From a virus: a stretch of 64,000 nt of DNA. The position numbers and the translations under genes were made by a program. Below, one piece after another: positions 15,373 through 61,151 of this stretch; positions within the stretch are counted from its first letter, which is position 1; each line of letters starts with the position of its first letter. The notes below the pieces were generated by a model, which made no database searches, had not been told where the DNA came from, and saw only the letters and a list, made by a program, of their open reading frames with translations. The stretch spans positions 1-64,000 of the IMG/VR virus record IMGVR_UViG_3300023238_000005. One strand, given 5' to 3'.

Positions 15373-15744
15373 TTATATTGCTGTTGCTAGCGAATTGTCT
15401 AAGTTTTCTACATCAAAGTTAATGCTTACGCCGCATCCACATGCTGATTGTGCGTTTGGATTGTTAACTTGAAAAGTTGCACCCATTATATCTTTAACAT
15501 AATCTATTTCTGTACCTGCCATGTACATTACTGCTATTGCACCAACTACAAATTTACCTGTATCTGAGTCAATAACTATATCATTCTCTTCTAGATCAGC
15601 TTCTGTTGCTACAATTGTCCAATCGTATTCAAATCCAGCGCAGCCGCCACCTTTTAAATTGAGACTGACTGCATAACTGTCATTTTCTTGACATATACTA
15701 TCAATTTGTGCTTTTGCTGTGTCCGTTAGTGTAACTATACTCAT
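15373..15744 (-). CDS. iscA: A-type Fe-S cluster carrier (IscA/SufA/HesB family)
   Basis: GGGCAGFEY and NPNAQSACGCGVS motifs. Confidence 0.92.
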   Translation of the reverse strand: MSIVTLTDTAKAQIDSICQENDSYAVSLNLKGGGCAGFEYDWTIVATEADLEENDIVIDSDTGKFVVGAIAVMYMAGTEIDYVKDIMGATFQVNNPNAQSACGCGVSINFDVENLDNSLATAI

Positions 15745-15773: not shown

Positions 15774-15807
15774 GTTGCGTTTTATAATCTTAATGTTAAA
15801 TATACTT

Positions 15808-16095
15808 ATGTACATAAGAGAATTTAAAAAGCAGACCCGGCATGTGCGTAAAAGCAAAATGGGCAAGGAACATGCCTATAAGCGTGAAGTTACGCATTGT
15901 GTATTTAGGTGTGATAATTGCGATGCAGAGTTTGAGCGCACAAGAGGTAGCATGGATCCAAAGCGTCTAAGTAATAACTACTTTCACGTATGTAAGAACT
16001 GTGATGCAAAAGTTTTTGCCCAAAAGAAAGGCGTAGAGCGCAAACAAGTTTGGAACATGAGTGCTAGTAGCTCTACGCCTATTGGTAAGTTATAG
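15808..16095 (+). CDS. Hypothetical zinc-ribbon protein
   Basis: CDNC and CKNC cysteine pairs; ATG at 15808. Confidence 0.65.
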   Translation: MYIREFKKQTRHVRKSKMGKEHAYKREVTHCVFRCDNCDAEFERTRGSMDPKRLSNNYFHVCKNCDAKVFAQKKGVERKQVWNMSASSSTPIGKL

Positions 16096-16096
16096 A

Positions 16097-16168
16097 TTAT
16101 CTAGTCTTAAAATACATAGTAATCTCAAACCCTAGTCGCATATCTTGATACGTTGGTTTAGTCCACAT
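16097..16168 (-). CDS. pqqA: PQQ precursor peptide PqqA (23 aa)
   Basis: Hand translation [23 protein letters not shown] matches the PqqA pattern (W-x-K-P, R-x-G-F-E-x-T-M-Y with the ExxxY core); SD AAGGAG upstream; not in the ORF track. Confidence 0.92.
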
Positions 16169-16178
16169 AATAATCTCC

Positions 16179-16310
16179 TTATAGTTTTTTATAGTCGCCG
16201 ATGCGCTTAACTTCGTTAAATGCCTCGTGTCCTTCAAAATACATCTGTACCATTACATATATTGCTATATTAACAAATATAAGAATTCCATATATTAAAT
16301 AGCCAATCAT
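16179..16310 (-). CDS. 43-aa single-pass membrane peptide
   Basis: [43 protein letters not shown]; ATGA overlap with the upstream stop; its own stop overlaps the pqqA SD. Confidence 0.65.
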
Positions 16311-17536
16311 AAGTTTTTCCAAGTAAATGCGCCAAAGAACATTTCATCTTCTGACATTTGTCCCCATGGCACTAGTCTGCTTGGGTCTGGATTCATTTTA
16401 TTCTCTTCTGAGTTATCAAAAGCCCCTTCTACAAAAAGGCGTGTTCCTTTAGGTAAAGGCTTAGGCTCTTTCCAGGTATATGATAGCTGCCAAGCGTAGT
16501 TGTATACAGGAATATCGATTAGCTCCTCTACAGTACCATCTGGGTAGAATGCAGTTGCTTTCATGCTTTTACCACGGAAATGCATGTGGGGTAAGAATGT
16601 ATGCAAGTTAACATCGTTCTTTAATACTACTTCTGCTGTCTGAATAAAGTTAGGGTCATACGGCGGGATCGGTGTCCACGTATCAGGAAATATACAAGCG
16701 CAATCTCCTGCCATTCTTTCTTGTGGTACTACACCTTCGTCGTGAAAGTATAGGCCAATTCTTGCTTTATCTGTTCTAGCAGTGCCGTCTGGTGTGTAGT
16801 GTAGTTGCAAGTTTACAATTGATCCTGCACGTATTAACCCACCAGTGTTCTCGTCATAAAATTCAGGATCACCACCTGGAACATATGCAGAGATAGAAGC
16901 ATTGTTCATTTCTTCTTGACCACCACCTTGTGTACCTAAGATGTTACCGTTGCGCTCGCCAGGTACTGTAATTGAGTTTAGCATGTGATGCATTACAGTT
17001 GGCTCTGAAGGCAAAAACTGTGACCCACGTAACCAACGATCCTCAGTTAATCCTAGGTCTGCTTGCGTGTATCTGTAAGGTATTGCATTAGGTCCCATAG
17101 ATCCTATTGCTGGTATTTCTTGTGGGGGAACTTCGATAATCATATCAGGTTCACCGTGTACCCATTCTGAAGTTGAGTACGTAGTTTCTGTTAGAGGATC
17201 TCTATCACCTTCTACAGGAGTGCCTGCGTCAATCCAAGCTACAAGAGTTTCCATCTCTAAATCATTTAGCGTTCTGTGATTTATGATATCCTTTGCATAC
17301 TTGCGATCGATCTGTCCTGGTGGCATACGTTTTGATACAATAGCTTCTTTAATTGCAGGAGCAAATGCTTGTAGCATTCTATAGTCAGTCATTGCCCATG
17401 GCGCAATGCCACTTTCTCTATGACAAGCTTGACATTGTTCTACAAATATAGGTGCTACATTTTCAGCGTAGTCGATATCTACAGCTAGTCCTGCCGCTGG
17501 TAATAAACTACTTACTAGCCATATTAACTTTTTCAT
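16307..17536 (-). CDS. Exported cytochrome c plus copper type II (PHM/DBH-like) monooxygenase, paralogue B
   Basis: Signal-peptide-like N-terminus, CQACH heme motif, candidate Cu ligands MHHM...LHY and PHMH...DEM. Confidence 0.85.
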   Translation of the reverse strand: MKKLIWLVSSLLPAAGLAVDIDYAENVAPIFVEQCQACHRESGIAPWAMTDYRMLQAFAPAIKEAIVSKRMPPGQIDRKYAKDIINHRTLNDLEMETLVAWIDAGTPVEGDRDPLTETTYSTSEWVHGEPDMIIEVPPQEIPAIGSMGPNAIPYRYTQADLGLTEDRWLRGSQFLPSEPTVMHHMLNSITVPGERNGNILGTQGGGQEEMNNASISAYVPGGDPEFYDENTGGLIRAGSIVNLQLHYTPDGTARTDKARIGLYFHDEGVVPQERMAGDCACIFPDTWTPIPPYDPNFIQTAEVVLKNDVNLHTFLPHMHFRGKSMKATAFYPDGTVEELIDIPVYNYAWQLSYTWKEPKPLPKGTRLFVEGAFDNSEENKMNPDPSRLVPWGQMSEDEMFFGAFTWKNL

Positions 17537-18791
17537 TCCTTTCCTCTTTTAGTTTATTGTATCCTTCCTCGTCTAAGTGTGTAATAGCAAGCCAAGCGTG
17601 AGTCATTTCGTCACCTGTTCTTGAACCTCCCATTACCCACATATCAGCATCTGGATTATTTGGATTGTTTTCTGTATTATCATACCATTGCTTTAGCACA
17701 ATAACTGCGCCTGCTGGTATAAGCGGTGCTACGTCTGAATTGTACAAATGACTGTGATGCCATGTTGCACTCCAATTTGATACTTGGCTAATCTGTTCTG
17801 TTTGTCCTGTCTCAGGATAGAATATTTCCAAACTTGCTGCGTTCATACGCAAGTGTCCATGTGGTTGAAAACTATCTAGTCTAACTGGATGATCAAAACT
17901 GTGGAAGCCTTGTGTCATGTAATAGCCGTTGGGTGGGATAGTAATATCGTCCTGGTCTCCTAGGCGATATAAACTCAAGTCTTGTTTGTATTTCAATTCT
18001 TGGCTTTCCTCTTCGGTGTATAACCAAAGCCCAATCTCTACCACGTTGTCTCGAATAACTGATCCTGGTGCCATTGCTCCAAGTCCACCGGGGAACATAT
18101 GAATGTCCCATGCTACTTCTGCGTTTGCTGGTATAGTACGACATACTCCTTGTGGTACTATTTCTCCCCACTTTCCCATAGCATACTCAGTCAGCATACC
18201 TTGCCTGCCTCCCTCAGTTATAATACTTGAGTTGGCATGATGTACTACTGATTTTGCATCGCCACGTGGTTTAACTTGTACTGCTTTAATGCAACGGTCT
18301 TCACTTAGTCCTGTTGGAACATTGTGCTTGTGCCACAAGTCGTTACCGCTTGCTGGAATGTCAATTGCAACACTGGCAATGATTGCGTCCGGTGCGCCAA
18401 AGTCTTCTTCAAAACTCCATGCTTCTGGATCACGCAAATTTACTGGCTGTACTACCTTGTCTGGGTCGCCATAACTTGCTCCGGTATCTACCCACTCAAC
18501 TACTGTGTCTATGTCTTTTTGTGATAAGCGCCAATCACCTTGTAGGTCTTGAATTCCAATACCGTGGTCATACGCATATGGCGGCATCTCTCTTTTCATT
18601 ACTTTAAGTGATATTAATGGTGCCCAAGGGCGTACTTGCTCGTATGTTTCAAAGCTCATTGGCCCGATGCCACCAGCGCGATGACACACTACACAATTAT
18701 CGTTGATGATAGCTGCTACTTCGTTAGTGTATGTTTGTGCTGATAGGACAAGTGGGAATAAAGCCGCTAATGCTGCTGTAATATATTTCAT
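17508..18791 (-). CDS. Exported cytochrome c plus copper type II (PHM/DBH-like) monooxygenase, paralogue A
   Basis: Signal-peptide-like N-terminus, CVVCH heme motif, VHHA...IHM and PHGH...DEM. Confidence 0.85.
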   Translation of the reverse strand: MKYITAALAALFPLVLSAQTYTNEVAAIINDNCVVCHRAGGIGPMSFETYEQVRPWAPLISLKVMKREMPPYAYDHGIGIQDLQGDWRLSQKDIDTVVEWVDTGASYGDPDKVVQPVNLRDPEAWSFEEDFGAPDAIIASVAIDIPASGNDLWHKHNVPTGLSEDRCIKAVQVKPRGDAKSVVHHANSSIITEGGRQGMLTEYAMGKWGEIVPQGVCRTIPANAEVAWDIHMFPGGLGAMAPGSVIRDNVVEIGLWLYTEEESQELKYKQDLSLYRLGDQDDITIPPNGYYMTQGFHSFDHPVRLDSFQPHGHLRMNAASLEIFYPETGQTEQISQVSNWSATWHHSHLYNSDVAPLIPAGAVIVLKQWYDNTENNPNNPDADMWVMGGSRTGDEMTHAWLAITHLDEEGYNKLKEERNEKVNMASK

Positions 18792-18882: not shown

Positions 18883-19047
18883 TTATTCTGACTTATATAT
18901 TGTCCAAGCACCATATGCAATAGCACCGTATGCTACTAAAGCTGCTATAGGTTTAAATATTAGAAATGCAATTCCTGCAAGTACTAATACTGCACCGTCT
19001 AGTGTAGTTCTTTCTTCTAATCTTTTCTTTATCCATGTTTTAACCAT
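18883..19047 (-). CDS. Small two-TM membrane protein (54 aa)
   Basis: Hand translation MVKTWIKKRLEERTTLDGAVLVLAGIAFLIFKPIAALVAYGAIAYGAWTIYKSE; SD AAGGAG. Confidence 0.7.
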   Translation of the reverse strand: MVKTWIKKRLEERTTLDGAVLVLAGIAFLIFKPIAALVAYGAIAYGAWTIYKSE

Positions 19048-19824: not shown

Positions 19825-19853
19825 AGTATAACAGTGAAGATGGTGTATGTCAA
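19825..19853 (-). promoter_or_regulatory. Sigma70-type early promoter
   Basis: TTGACA-N17-TATACT. Confidence 0.8.
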
Positions 19854-27548: not shown

Positions 27549-28877
27549 CTAGATGGATACAGCAGACAAATCGCCAATCAGAATATCTTCAAACGTATTT
27601 TTACTGTACGTTACAATCTCAGATTTAAGAGCTTTTGCTTTTGCTTTTAGTTTTGCAATTTCTTCTGTTGTTAAGCTACGCATAGGAAGTCCTAAGAAGC
27701 CCTTAACACGACCTTGTAAGATAGCGTCATACGCTTCAGCTTGTGTAATTACTGCCGTTTCCTTGGTGTTACGAAGCTCTATAGCGCCGTCTACAACACC
27801 CTGTATGAACTTGGCTCTAGCGTTAGTATAGTCCATTTCCTCTTGCATACTAGCTAGTAAGTGCTGCTTGCGCTTGTCGTTGTACTCTATACGCTTGACA
27901 TACCATGCTTCTAACAACTCTTTAAGACCTTTAAAGATAACAATCTTGTTGTTCTCATCAATACAAGTAAAGTTTTCGCTTACCTTTTTAATCAGCTTTA
28001 GCTTGGTCATAATCCATTCATCTGTTCGTTCACCGAACGCACGATCTACTTGGATTTCAAACTCAAACACATCATTGTCACTCAAGTCATCATAGTCTTT
28101 AATCACTTTGTCGTCTACGAGCTTCTCTAACACTGCTTGATATTGCTTGAGTGTATAACCCACTGGCAACGAGTTAATAGTTATACGGTGCTTAGTATTG
28201 CGTACAAACGATCCTGTGATCTCCCATTGGACTTTGCTTTCGCCTTTGTTAACAACACAACTCATACCTTCCCAATGCGGAGTAAGGTTAGCAGTAATGC
28301 GCTCACCTGAAGCACGTTGCTTTACCCACTTCATAATCTCCTTGGGCTTGCGTGGAAGGATCTTTTGTGCAAAGCCAATACTTACACCTTCACTGCCGTT
28401 GATAGCGAGCATAGGAAGTACTGGTACATAGTAGCGGGGCTCAATCTTAGCCCCCTCAAAGTTCTGATGCTCAAGACTTACAAAGTCATCCTTAACATAC
28501 AGTTTCTTTAGGATAGGATTCATACGTGCAAAGATATAACGTGTAGCAGCCGCATCATTAATAAACGATGATCCAAAGTTGCCATCGCCTTCTAGTAATG
28601 GAACATTGTTGCCACTGCCTACATAGTTTGCAGTCATGTTAACAATAGTGCCTTCTAGGCTACCATGCAAATACTGTGCATAGTCCTGTACCTTAGGACC
28701 TAAGTTGCTTACTTTAACAAATTTGTCAATGTTCTGTTGTAGCACTGTGTGTACAATCTTACGACTTGCGTTCTTTTGCCCATCAATATAGTTTGCTAGT
28801 TTACGCACATTGTCGTATACTGAAAAGTCAATGTATTCGTTCTTAAAGAAGCCTTCGAGTGGAAGTTGCTTTGTCAT
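27549..28877 (-). CDS. Type II DNA topoisomerase, breakage-reunion subunit (T4 gp52-like)
   Basis: IDGQK..RK, YLHG, GNFGS, AATRYI (active-site Tyr), EPRYYVP. Confidence 0.93.
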   Translation of the reverse strand: MTKQLPLEGFFKNEYIDFSVYDNVRKLANYIDGQKNASRKIVHTVLQQNIDKFVKVSNLGPKVQDYAQYLHGSLEGTIVNMTANYVGSGNNVPLLEGDGNFGSSFINDAAATRYIFARMNPILKKLYVKDDFVSLEHQNFEGAKIEPRYYVPVLPMLAINGSEGVSIGFAQKILPRKPKEIMKWVKQRASGERITANLTPHWEGMSCVVNKGESKVQWEITGSFVRNTKHRITINSLPVGYTLKQYQAVLEKLVDDKVIKDYDDLSDNDVFEFEIQVDRAFGERTDEWIMTKLKLIKKVSENFTCIDENNKIVIFKGLKELLEAWYVKRIEYNDKRKQHLLASMQEEMDYTNARAKFIQGVVDGAIELRNTKETAVITQAEAYDAILQGRVKGFLGLPMRSLTTEEIAKLKAKAKALKSEIVTYSKNTFEDILIGDLSAVSI

Positions 28878-28888
28878 TCTTTATACCC

Positions 28889-30679
28889 TTAAATTTTCAT
28901 TATGTCGAAAGGAGCACTTTGTAGTAACTGCTCTTTGCGATAATCGATTGTACTACTACTAAACCAATTTGTAAAGAGGTCAGTGTCAGCAATACTTACG
29001 GTCGGCAACATTTCTGCCATTGTGTCTGCGTCGATGATGTGCTTTAAGTCTTTCTCACTCCAACTACCCAAGCCTTTTACATAGCTTACGTCTAGCTTGT
29101 GATCAATCTTGTTTACATCTGCAAACGTGTATGCCCATTCTTTAACAATGTTGTTCTTCTTGCCAATTGCAATAGGTGTGCGTAGGATCTTCATCTTGCC
29201 ATTATTTAAATGCTCCGGAAAGTACTTAAACATAAACAACGATACTAGTCCTGTAATACGCATGCCATCTGCGTCAGCGTCAGTTGCTAAACAAATCTCT
29301 GCTTCTGGAAACATTGTAATAATGCTGTACAGTTCGCTAAGTTCTTTGTTCGCCATAAACTTCTGATGCGACACTTCTAGTACATTAAGCGGAACACCTT
29401 TGAGTGCATAAAACGCATTACCTTTGCGTCCTAAACATTTAATCAAGCCACCACTTGCTGAGTCACCTTCTACAACAAAGATCCTGTCAGTGTTGCGTCC
29501 AATAGCTGCAAAGTACTTGTCGCTTTTAACTTTCTTTGCTTTCTCTAGTTTGCCTAAGTCTTTCTTAGCATTAAGATCATCTTGCAATCTAGTGTAAGCA
29601 CAAATCTCATCAATAAGCTCTGCGTTCTTCATTAGCTTTGCAACAACTTTGCTTACGTCAAAGTCGCCAATAGCATCGCGGCATTCTGCATTTGAGTTTG
29701 TTACACGCTCTTTAGTTTGCGAGTCAAACTTTAGTGCTGGGAAGCCGTTTACAATAGCATGTACTCGCAGGTGTTGCTTCAAACGTGCCGCACTAATATC
29801 TACTTTGCGTCGACGCTTTAGTACTTCACGTAAGTTACCAATCACTGCACTAATAAAGAAGTCAATGTGTGTGCCGCCTTTAACACTCAAGCCATTTACA
29901 AGCGAGTGTGATTGGAAGCTGCCGTCTGACTTAGTAATACCAAATACTGCTTTCTCTGTATTGAACACATCACATGTTCCAAAGTAGTCAGCAAATTTTA
30001 GTTTAATAGTTTTGCGGTTAAAGCGGAAGCGTACTGTATCAAAAGCAAGTGCTAATGAACGCACACGTTCTTCGATAATATCTGTGTGTGCTTGGTCAAT
30101 ATTCTCCATACCAAAGAAAGCATAGTCAGGTTGGAACTTTACAGTTGTACCTTTTAACGATGTTTCTTTAGTGCGGATACGATCAATCTGCCCGTCCTTG
30201 CCTACCATTTGTACTTGCAGTTTGCCGTCACTACTCTTAGCATCAAACTTAGTAGATGTTACAAACGTAATCATACTGCCAACTCCGTTCATGCCAATGC
30301 TTTCGCGATTGTCATCATCAAAGTTACTACCAGCTCTTGCTCGCGTAAATGCACTTACCATTTGGTATTCTTTACCATCCGGAGTATCAATCTCTACACT
30401 AGGAATGCCACGACCGTTGTCGCTTACAACAATAGTACCGTCAGCTTCAATGTCTACATCAATACGTGTAGCAAACTCGCGGTTAGTGCGAACGTGTTCG
30501 TCTACACTGTTGTCAATAATTTCGTTGATAACTTTTAACAAGCCGCCTACGATGTTTACTTTTTTAAACTCTGCGTTGATAAAAGATACTTCTTCTTGTA
30601 CAACCTGCGAGCCGCCGTACATGGAAAAGCGTTTGCGGATGTGTTCTGCATCCGATAATAGTTTAAAGTTATCAGTCAT
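28889..30679 (-). CDS. Type II DNA topoisomerase, ATPase/TOPRIM subunit (gp39+gp60 uninterrupted)
   Basis: EIIDNSVDE, DNGRGIP, GMNGVG, EGDSA, DADADG, KGLGS. Confidence 0.94.
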   Translation of the reverse strand: MTDNFKLLSDAEHIRKRFSMYGGSQVVQEEVSFINAEFKKVNIVGGLLKVINEIIDNSVDEHVRTNREFATRIDVDIEADGTIVVSDNGRGIPSVEIDTPDGKEYQMVSAFTRARAGSNFDDDNRESIGMNGVGSMITFVTSTKFDAKSSDGKLQVQMVGKDGQIDRIRTKETSLKGTTVKFQPDYAFFGMENIDQAHTDIIEERVRSLALAFDTVRFRFNRKTIKLKFADYFGTCDVFNTEKAVFGITKSDGSFQSHSLVNGLSVKGGTHIDFFISAVIGNLREVLKRRRKVDISAARLKQHLRVHAIVNGFPALKFDSQTKERVTNSNAECRDAIGDFDVSKVVAKLMKNAELIDEICAYTRLQDDLNAKKDLGKLEKAKKVKSDKYFAAIGRNTDRIFVVEGDSASGGLIKCLGRKGNAFYALKGVPLNVLEVSHQKFMANKELSELYSIITMFPEAEICLATDADADGMRITGLVSLFMFKYFPEHLNNGKMKILRTPIAIGKKNNIVKEWAYTFADVNKIDHKLDVSYVKGLGSWSEKDLKHIIDADTMAEMLPTVSIADTDLFTNWFSSSTIDYRKEQLLQSAPFDIMKI

Positions 30680-59224: not shown

Positions 59225-61151
<1,927 letters not shown>

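Follow-up and report, generated by a model that had tools for sequence, protein, structure and literature searches.

We analysed a four-gene locus in a 64-kb window of viral DNA, where the window is the whole stretch that was studied and corresponds to the first 64 kb of the 116-kb IMG/VR virus record IMGVR_UViG_3300023238_000005 (CheckV completeness of the record, 32%). Two of the genes encode large paralogous proteins, here called A and B, with the predicted features of exported copper monooxygenases that carry a c-type haem domain; the other two encode a hydrophobic micro-protein and PqqA, the precursor peptide of pyrroloquinoline quinone (PQQ). In the direction of transcription, the genes and the signal that joins the last two are as follows.

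17508-18791, minus strand: gene A, an open reading frame (ORF) of 427 aa with a signal-peptide-like N-terminus, a putative class-I-type c haem domain and a two-copper core of the type found in peptidylglycine alpha-hydroxylating monooxygenase (PHM) and dopamine beta-hydroxylase (DBH)
16307-17536, minus strand: gene B, an ORF of 409 aa, paralog of A with the same architecture
16179-16310, minus strand: micro-protein gene, 43 aa from its ATG, with one hydrophobic helix
16175-16181, minus strand: TAAGGAG, the stop codon of the micro-protein gene fused with the Shine-Dalgarno sequence of pqqA, as read from the sequence
16097-16168, minus strand: pqqA, encoding a 23-aa PQQ precursor peptide that matches PF08042 and TIGR02107

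B begins before A has ended, with an overlap of 29 nt, the stop codon of B (TGA) and the start codon of the micro-protein gene (ATG) share the tetranucleotide ATGA, and the TAA stop of the micro-protein gene (16181-16179) lies within TAAGGAG, 6 nt ahead of the ATG of pqqA. A preliminary description of this DNA had reported four co-oriented and coupled ORFs, with an ATGA overlap between B and the micro-protein gene and a pqqA Shine-Dalgarno sequence overlapping the preceding stop codon, and all of these features were found in the sequence, the four genes all lying on the minus strand.

Gene A adjoins tail-fibre genes, and the phage genes around the locus, recognised by their PHROG matches, encode a tail fibre and spike, T4-type topoisomerase II, DNA ligase and GroEL. 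Together with the origin of the sequence from an IMG/VR record and the existence of relatives of up to 340 kb (the 340-kb relative being 91% complete according to CheckV), the matches to tail fibre, topoisomerase II, ligase and GroEL families identify the window as phage DNA.

Predicted haem and copper modules of A and B and their bacterial relatives

A and B are 26% identical to each other (E 7e-32), and both begin with a stretch that resembles a signal peptide when read from the sequence by eye (MKYITAALAALFPLVLSAQ in A and MKKLIWLVSSLLPAAGLA in B). In A, the haem motif C33xxC36H37 is accompanied by M69PP, and the copper motifs consist of H184, H185 and H231 and of H311, H313 and M396. The corresponding motifs of B are C35xxC38H39, M71PP, H183 H184, LH246Y, H317xH319 and M399. 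An alignment of 42 family sequences that includes A and B showed no variation at C33/C36/H37, M69-P70-P71, H184/H185, H231 and H311/H313 (numbering of A), and at least 90% of the sequences have M396.

Sequence searches of the PDB with A or B as a single query returned nothing informative, and only the profile of the 42-sequence family alignment reached the known copper monooxygenases, matching human DBH at E 1.3e-9 and rat PHM at E 1e-7. When this profile was aligned with rat PHM, the copper ligands of the family fell on PHM residues H107/H108, H172, H242/H244 and M314. The AlphaFold2 models of A and B (predicted local distance difference test scores of 87.7 and 83.9, respectively) both contain the two-domain beta-sandwich catalytic core of the PHM/DBH type, and their best PDB matches in Foldseek were PHM and DBH (E ~1e-11, probability 1.0, ~300 aligned columns), to which their sequence identity is only 11-16%.

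The ligand positions are also conserved among the phages. Those of A are invariant in all 61 phage copies, with a ratio of nonsynonymous to synonymous substitution rates (dN/dS) of ~0.1, and the positions checked in B (CxxCH, MPP, HH, HxH and Met) are invariant in all 28 phage copies, with a dN/dS of ~0.09. Across the phage copies of both genes dN/dS was ~0.09-0.12, which indicates strong purifying selection, and this selection together with the conserved ligand positions suggests that the phage genes are functional. Sequence and models together point to A and B as exported, haem c-fused copper monooxygenases of the PHM/DBH type with putative haem and copper cofactors. The signal-peptide-like start that the preliminary description had noticed in both proteins was seen again by eye, and the CxxCH and full PHM/DBH ligand pattern that it had noticed were confirmed by alignment and profile. 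No PHROG family was found for A, B, the micro-protein or PqqA, and DNA and protein searches of the INPHARED phage collection gave no match.

Relatives of A and B were collected by an exhaustive search of 1.84 billion cluster representatives, which returned 9,136 clusters at 50% identity with E <=1e-3. Many of these relatives consist of an N-terminal AhpC/TSA redoxin domain, a cytochrome c module and the N- and C-terminal Cu2_monooxygen domains, in this order. The bacterial B-type relatives are ~560 aa long and carry the AhpC-TSA redoxin domain, which is absent from phage B and, judging from this comparison, has been lost there. The closest cellular homologs of A are 63-82% identical and come from Pseudohongiella, Pseudohongiellaceae and Pseudomonadales genomes. 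Amongst the sampled Pseudohongiellaceae, the family is present in 49 of 81 genomes, typically with 8 to >20 copies each, and an exact count in three Pseudohongiella-type genomes gave 22-23 copies per genome. A-type and B-type genes occur in the same bacterial loci, the B-type gene being separated by a few kb from a single A-type gene or from two or three in tandem.

In a FastTree phylogeny, the phage A sequences formed a clade (support 99) nested in the A-type radiation of Pseudohongiellaceae and containing one bacterial sequence, and the phage B sequences formed a clade (support 100) that was sister to a Pseudohongiellaceae B-type sequence (support 90). The GC content of the phage genes is ~40%, the same as that of the phage itself, compared with 53-57% in the bacterial loci, suggesting that the capture of A and B was not recent. 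The genes have the traits of auxiliary metabolic genes, with a host homolog of up to 82% identity, viral neighbours and a dN/dS of ~0.1. From these comparisons, A and B are not phage inventions but members of a large, uncharacterised bacterial family, and Pseudohongiellaceae are the likely host lineage, an assignment based solely on the homology of the captured genes. Literature searches on bacterial PHM-like enzymes and on Pseudohongiella phages returned nothing relevant, which is no proof that no such work exists.

The bacterial loci showed further features. An exported protein family of ~290-320 aa without a Pfam match is encoded alongside the monooxygenase genes in ~55 of 75 bacterial loci, with the following examples.

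L285, 5554-6480, plus strand: accessory protein
L104, 3631-4584, plus strand: accessory protein
L288, 7732-8592, minus strand: accessory protein
L291, 6566-7525, plus strand: accessory protein

Its Atlas features resemble those of clusters named DUF4198 or PKD, which we take as a lead only, and the protein could be a chaperone or a substrate-binding partner. A major facilitator superfamily (MFS) transporter gene was seen in the bacterial locus L104. Four contigs from metagenome-assembled genomes (MAGs) labelled Klebsiella (L137, L147, L126 and L159) carry Pseudohongiella-like A/B loci with 63-66% identity to phage A, and their labels look wrong.

The predicted export of both proteins and the position of gene A next to tail-fibre genes would suit enzymes that serve the phage directly, by remodelling the envelope or a receptor against superinfection or by handling copper or oxidative stress in the periplasm, as would the peroxiredoxin-like AhpC/TSA domain of the bacterial B-type relatives. 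However, it is this very domain that phage B has lost, and the phage genes are close orthologs (up to 82%) of chromosomal genes that stand beside the MFS transporter in L104 and beside dehydrogenases, which argues for a conserved small-molecule enzymology. We therefore consider a direct benefit of this kind improbable.

PqqA and the PQQ dehydrogenases beside bacterial family members

The 23-aa ORF scored 42.9 bits against PF08042 (cut-off 21.1) and 44.8 bits against the TIGR02107 equivalog model (cut-off 20). Formation of PQQ involves the cross-linking of a Glu-x3-Tyr pair in PqqA, and this pair is present as E15-x3-Y19 in the motif GFEITMY. By eye, ~16 of the 23 residues are the same as in the PqqA of a Pseudohongiella-type genome that encodes pqqA-B-C-D-E. 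A degenerate PqqA DNA pattern matched the window once and matched none of 100 shuffled versions of it. With both curated cut-offs passed, the earlier identification of this ORF as PqqA is sound.

Searches of the phage's own record and of the 91%-complete relative, which did not extend to pqqB and pqqD, found no pqqC, pqqE or PQQ_2-type protein. The lack of pqqC, pqqE and a PQQ_2 protein in a nearly complete relative that does carry pqqA suggests that the phage relies on the maturation enzymes of its host, which would convert the phage PqqA to PQQ.

We searched three Pseudohongiella-type genomes, with 68 monooxygenase family genes in total, for both this family and PQQ dehydrogenases. Several of the monooxygenase paralogs directly adjoin PQQ dehydrogenase genes on the same strand (PF01011, E 1e-59 to 1e-184), and many of these dehydrogenases carry the same N-terminal CxxCH...MPP haem module as the monooxygenases. 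Such same-strand neighbourhoods occur in at least five different gene orders. In L288, L289 and L290, an accessory protein of ~290 aa is followed by the monooxygenase and by a cytochrome c-PQQ dehydrogenase of 722-734 aa, with gaps of -4 to 42 nt and with the order kept in all three genomes. In L291 and L293 the order is a cytochrome c protein (di-haem in L291), PQQ dehydrogenase, monooxygenase and accessory protein; L294 consists of a cytochrome c-PQQ dehydrogenase followed by a monooxygenase, and L292 of a monooxygenase, an accessory protein and a cytochrome c-PQQ dehydrogenase. Among the loci with the nearest relatives of the phage genes, L098 has a B-type gene between two PQQ dehydrogenase genes, opposite an A-type gene of 67% identity, and its B-type protein is the best bacterial match of phage B (48% identical). 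L130 has an A-type gene (65% identical) followed by a PQQ dehydrogenase gene after ~155 nt, and in L122 the two families are interleaved on one strand. A PQQ dehydrogenase was also found in three Gemmatimonadota loci.

When direct and next-but-one neighbours are counted, a PQQ dehydrogenase accompanies 6-7 of the 68 family genes in the three genomes, where ~0.5 would be expected from the gene counts. Among the 81 genomes, the monooxygenase family was present in 24 of the 26 that contain pqqC and in 25 of the 55 that do not (Fisher p 6e-5, without phylogenetic correction). The closest copies of A are those of the three genomes G010, G015 and G066 (81-82% identity; genome sizes of 2.5-2.7 Mb), each of which contains 15-17 PQQ dehydrogenase genes. 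The preliminary description had proposed that PQQ dehydrogenases feed electrons through the fused haem c to the copper monooxygenase. This idea gains partial support from the operons that bacterial family members, including the closest relative of phage B, form with PQQ dehydrogenases, and none from the conservation of the phage genes as a cassette, which is described below.

On this evidence we favour, with moderate confidence, the reading that a marine jumbo phage of ~340 kb carries the locus as an auxiliary-metabolism islet of host origin, with A and B as haem-copper oxygenases and pqqA as an optional add-on that is linked to them indirectly. A and B are phage copies of the A-type and, minus the redoxin domain, of the B-type subfamily of a periplasmic family that has expanded in Pseudohongiellaceae. 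Their haem would take electrons from periplasmic c-type cytochromes or from haem-fused dehydrogenases and hand them to the first copper site (CuH) in place of ascorbate, and the second copper site (CuM) would activate O2 and hydroxylate a small periplasmic substrate other than PqqA. The phage pqqA would provide the host PqqB-E proteins with precursor peptide, of which one is used per PQQ, and the added PqqA would sustain PQQ for the many PQQ dehydrogenases of the host. The two parts would be connected only through these dehydrogenases, which in bacteria are operonic with the monooxygenase family and whose role could be to reduce the haem-copper enzyme again, to oxidise the alcohol that it makes, or to do both. 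Should the islet be of this nature, we put the chance that electrons run from PQQ dehydrogenase through c-type haem to the copper monooxygenase at about even.

Linkage of pqqA to A and B in phages and the variable islet

For comparison, 80 related viral loci were fetched with A as the query, to which the probable phage contig L085 was added; 58 of these loci had at least 3 kb of sequence downstream of A. A is followed by B in 33 of the 58 loci, B is replaced by a 57-aa lipoprotein and/or the micro-protein in 16; copies of A without B are frequent. Every pqqA seen in this phage group lies at the A locus, in the orders A-B-pqqA, A-B-micro-protein-pqqA or A-lipoprotein-pqqA. The exact order of the window (A, B, micro-protein, pqqA) was found in none of the 58 related loci. 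The islet downstream of A is hypervariable and also exchanges the lipoprotein, the micro-protein and an IscA gene, and the linkage of pqqA to A and B is facultative. The preliminary description had treated the four genes as one cassette, a view it would have given up if pqqA and the monooxygenases occurred independently in related phages. They do so in part, and the cassette is not a conserved unit.

Several results weigh against the reading of an auxiliary islet with an indirect PQQ link. Only 8 of the 58 related phage loci (14%) contain pqqA and 50 lack it, and in the nearest relatives of the A of the window (93-97% identity), A is accompanied by the lipoprotein, by IscA and in some cases by the micro-protein, B and pqqA both being absent. 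In none of the 75 bacterial A/B loci was pqqA found within 8 kb. A complete stand-alone pqqA ORF was found with the PqqA DNA pattern in at least 120 IMG/VR contigs (L165-L284), and at least 119 viral contigs contain pqqA without A or B and without pqqB-E in the fetched flanks. Since the islet is hypervariable, the adjacency of A and pqqA may reflect a single insertion into a tolerant site. The ~300-aa accessory protein of the bacterial loci is absent from the phage loci. A PQQ dehydrogenase lies within 8 kb of the A locus in 11 of 75 bacterial loci, which is not clearly above chance given the 15-17 PQQ dehydrogenase genes per genome, and orthologous operons in different genomes are not independent observations, although their gene orders do differ. 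No pqqC was found in G010, G015 or G066, nor was pqqA in G010, the one genome searched for it, all three being MAGs that may be incomplete; in a host like these, without pqqC, the phage pqqA would be useless. These genomes may represent PQQ auxotrophs that live on exogenous PQQ, or incomplete MAGs, and, as a speculation, the patchy occurrence of pqqA in the phage variants (14%) may mirror that of pqqC in the host genomes (32%).

The Pfam scores of A and B also count on this side, as they are below the gathering thresholds for both haem and copper domains. Cu2_monooxygen and Cu2_monoox_C are the Pfam domains of PHM, DBH and tyramine beta-monooxygenase. B matched Cu2_monoox_C with 15.7 bits, below the gathering threshold of 23, and A had no match to either domain. 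For Cytochrome_CBB3 and Cytochrom_C, A and B scored 18.7 and 17.5 bits, under the cut-off, which is exceeded by some bacterial relatives. Amongst the profile models by which the preliminary description would have judged the locus, those of PqqA were matched above their cut-offs, and the two copper domains were below the threshold or unmatched.

Many of the same counts are what one would expect if A/B and pqqA were unrelated auxiliary genes that share a hypervariable islet and act independently, with no redox or pathway coupling. The 50 of 58 related loci that have A, with or without B, and no pqqA speak for this explanation, as does the absence of the window order from all of them. In the at least 119 viral contigs with pqqA alone, its neighbours are ordinary phage genes, including replication and recombination genes. 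The bacterial loci lack pqqA within 8 kb, and in the genome G006 the pqqA-B-C-D-E operon lies 1.9 Mb from the A/B locus. The exchange of lipoprotein, micro-protein and IscA in the same islet fits as well. Against independence stand the bacterial operons with PQQ dehydrogenases, which were seen in several independent gene orders and include the nearest relative of phage B, and the restriction of pqqA in this phage group to the A locus, where it is tightly coupled to the preceding gene. We regard independent action as a serious, though less likely, alternative.

A peptide substrate was another alternative of the preliminary description. PHM acts on peptides, and this activity, together with the translational coupling of the genes, would be in line with a system in which the PHM-like A and B act on the PqqA-like peptide or on the 43-aa micro-protein, by hydroxylation or another modification, as in peptides that are made by the ribosome and modified after translation (RiPPs). 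However, PqqA has no signal peptide, whereas A and B carry export signals and require haem attachment in the periplasm. PqqA has no C-terminal glycine, retains the canonical sequence recognised by PqqD/E as well as its E-x3-Y pair, and matches the equivalog model. Furthermore, none of the 75 bacterial loci pairs the enzymes with pqqA, and most phage copies of A/B stand without pqqA and many without the micro-protein. Modification of either peptide by A and B is thus very improbable.

The micro-protein itself has a conserved MYFEGHEAF motif in addition to its hydrophobic helix, and its position downstream of A is conserved in related loci, whether these contain B or lack it. It had no Pfam or PHROG match, and its relatives comprise only 20 protein clusters, all at least 80% identical and none with a bacterial name. 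On these sequence comparisons, it appears to be specific to this phage group.

The lipoprotein that replaces B in the closest relatives is ~57-70 aa long and has an LxGC lipobox and the motif F-[DN]-W-[MN]-P ... N-I-R-x-C-R. It was found at the following loci.

L002-L004, L013 and L085: lipoprotein gene downstream of A
L166, ~318-530: lipoprotein gene
L173, 2992-3204, minus strand: lipoprotein gene

In unrelated phages, the lipoprotein gene immediately precedes pqqA on fetched contigs (7-11 kb) that contain neither A nor B, and it may be a second small gene associated with pqqA. We also considered the lipoprotein as a leftover of the signal peptide of B and rejected this idea, as its homolog stands as an independent gene in unrelated phages. 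L085 (PBPT01000016.1, 335,231 bp, labelled as a Candidatus Neomarinimicrobiota MAG) contains A (83% identity), the lipoprotein gene and pqqA, is of jumbo-phage size, and is probably a phage genome that was binned into a bacterial MAG.

Other genes and signals of the window around the locus are as follows.

15373-15744, minus strand: IscA/ErpA-type iron-sulfur carrier gene (PF01521, E 9e-17; TIGR00049 above cut-off; PHROG 17776)
15775-16095, plus strand: convergent Zn-ribbon ORF between pqqA and the IscA gene
18883-19047, minus strand: hydrophobic ORF of 54 aa just upstream of A
19825-19853, minus strand: near-consensus promoter TTGACA-17-TATACT, ~1 kb upstream of A, with a TG extension of the -10 element
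27549-30679, minus strand: both subunits of T4-type topoisomerase II
59225-60853, minus strand: GroEL gene (PHROG 5725, E 5e-178)

In many related phages, too, the A islet is followed by an IscA gene. The position of the promoter ~1 kb upstream of A suggests that the transcription unit may begin well before A. A phage-encoded GroEL together with both subunits of a T4-type topoisomerase II is typical of large myovirus-like jumbo phages.

Significance and comparison with known systems

To our knowledge, copper monooxygenases of the PHM/DBH type are known almost only as ascorbate-dependent animal enzymes. The family described here would add a very large prokaryotic branch with its own c-type haem, which reaches more than 20 copies per genome in marine heterotrophs, occurs in operons with PQQ dehydrogenases and has been captured by widespread marine phages of 340 kb. 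We tentatively propose, as a possibility that we do not rate highly, an unrecognised periplasmic system for C-H oxidation in Pseudohongiellaceae and other bacteria, in which a haem c-fused PHM-like copper monooxygenase would pair with a haem-fused PQQ dehydrogenase to make a redox couple that sustains itself, the oxidation of the alcohol product by the dehydrogenase returning two electrons to the oxygenase; abundant marine jumbo phages would reinforce both halves of the couple while they infect, through their oxygenase pair and through PqqA. If the coupling is real, it would represent a new periplasmic route for the oxidation of unactivated C-H bonds in dissolved organic matter, and the phages would tune an enzyme together with the provision of cofactor to its partner.

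Like PHM, DBH and tyramine beta-monooxygenase, A and B have a two-domain beta-sandwich and an unchanged order of the six ligands (CuH, HH...H; CuM, HxH...M). Unlike those enzymes, the A/B family is bacterial or phage-borne and periplasmic and has a predicted, fused N-terminal c-type haem domain, to which the bacterial B-types add a redoxin domain. The fused haem domain implies electron delivery by a protein instead of by ascorbate.

The phage pqqA differs from that of pqq operons, in which pqqA stands with pqqB-E, by the lack of pqqC and pqqE in the phage record and in the 91%-complete relative, where pqqB and pqqD were not searched. A stand-alone viral pqqA has already been published for Methylophilaceae phages of Lake Baikal (Coutinho et al. 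2020, PMC7678222), which likewise have no maturation genes and in which pqqA was read as boosting host PQQ for a PQQ dehydrogenase. The viral partner in the Baikal phages (PMC7678222) is a methanol dehydrogenase; here pqqA has haem-copper monooxygenases as neighbours, its carrier is a marine jumbo phage, and the search for a viral PQQ dehydrogenase gave none. The preliminary description knew of no phage system like the present one. Our literature searches found no paper on the haem-fused oxygenase family. With at least 120 viral contigs, stand-alone pqqA appears far commoner than the single published case suggests.

The dehydrogenases that neighbour the bacterial family members resemble quinohaemoprotein alcohol dehydrogenases in combining a PF01011 PQQ propeller with a c-type haem domain. 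They differ in their haem domain, which lies at the N-terminus and shares the CxxCH...MPP type of the monooxygenases, and none of them is phage-encoded.

Particulate methane monooxygenase (pMMO) is coupled to PQQ methanol dehydrogenase through cytochrome c in the direct-coupling model. The system proposed here would resemble it in that a copper monooxygenase facing the periplasm makes an alcohol, which is then oxidised by a PQQ dehydrogenase able to return electrons via a c-type haem. However, pMMO is an unrelated membrane enzyme, whereas the present protein is soluble and PHM-like with a haem of its own, and the coupling is suggested here by gene order only.

Lytic polysaccharide monooxygenases (LPMOs) are activated by dehydrogenases with a haem domain, such as cellobiose dehydrogenase and the fungal PQQ-dependent pyranose dehydrogenase. 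There, too, a secreted copper oxygenase is reduced by a secreted dehydrogenase via a cytochrome domain, and one of the donors uses PQQ. The LPMO systems differ from the A/B family in their copper site (a histidine brace), fold, haem type (b) and kingdom, and, unlike in LPMOs, the cytochrome in the A/B family is part of the oxygenase chain and, in many cases, of the dehydrogenase chain too.

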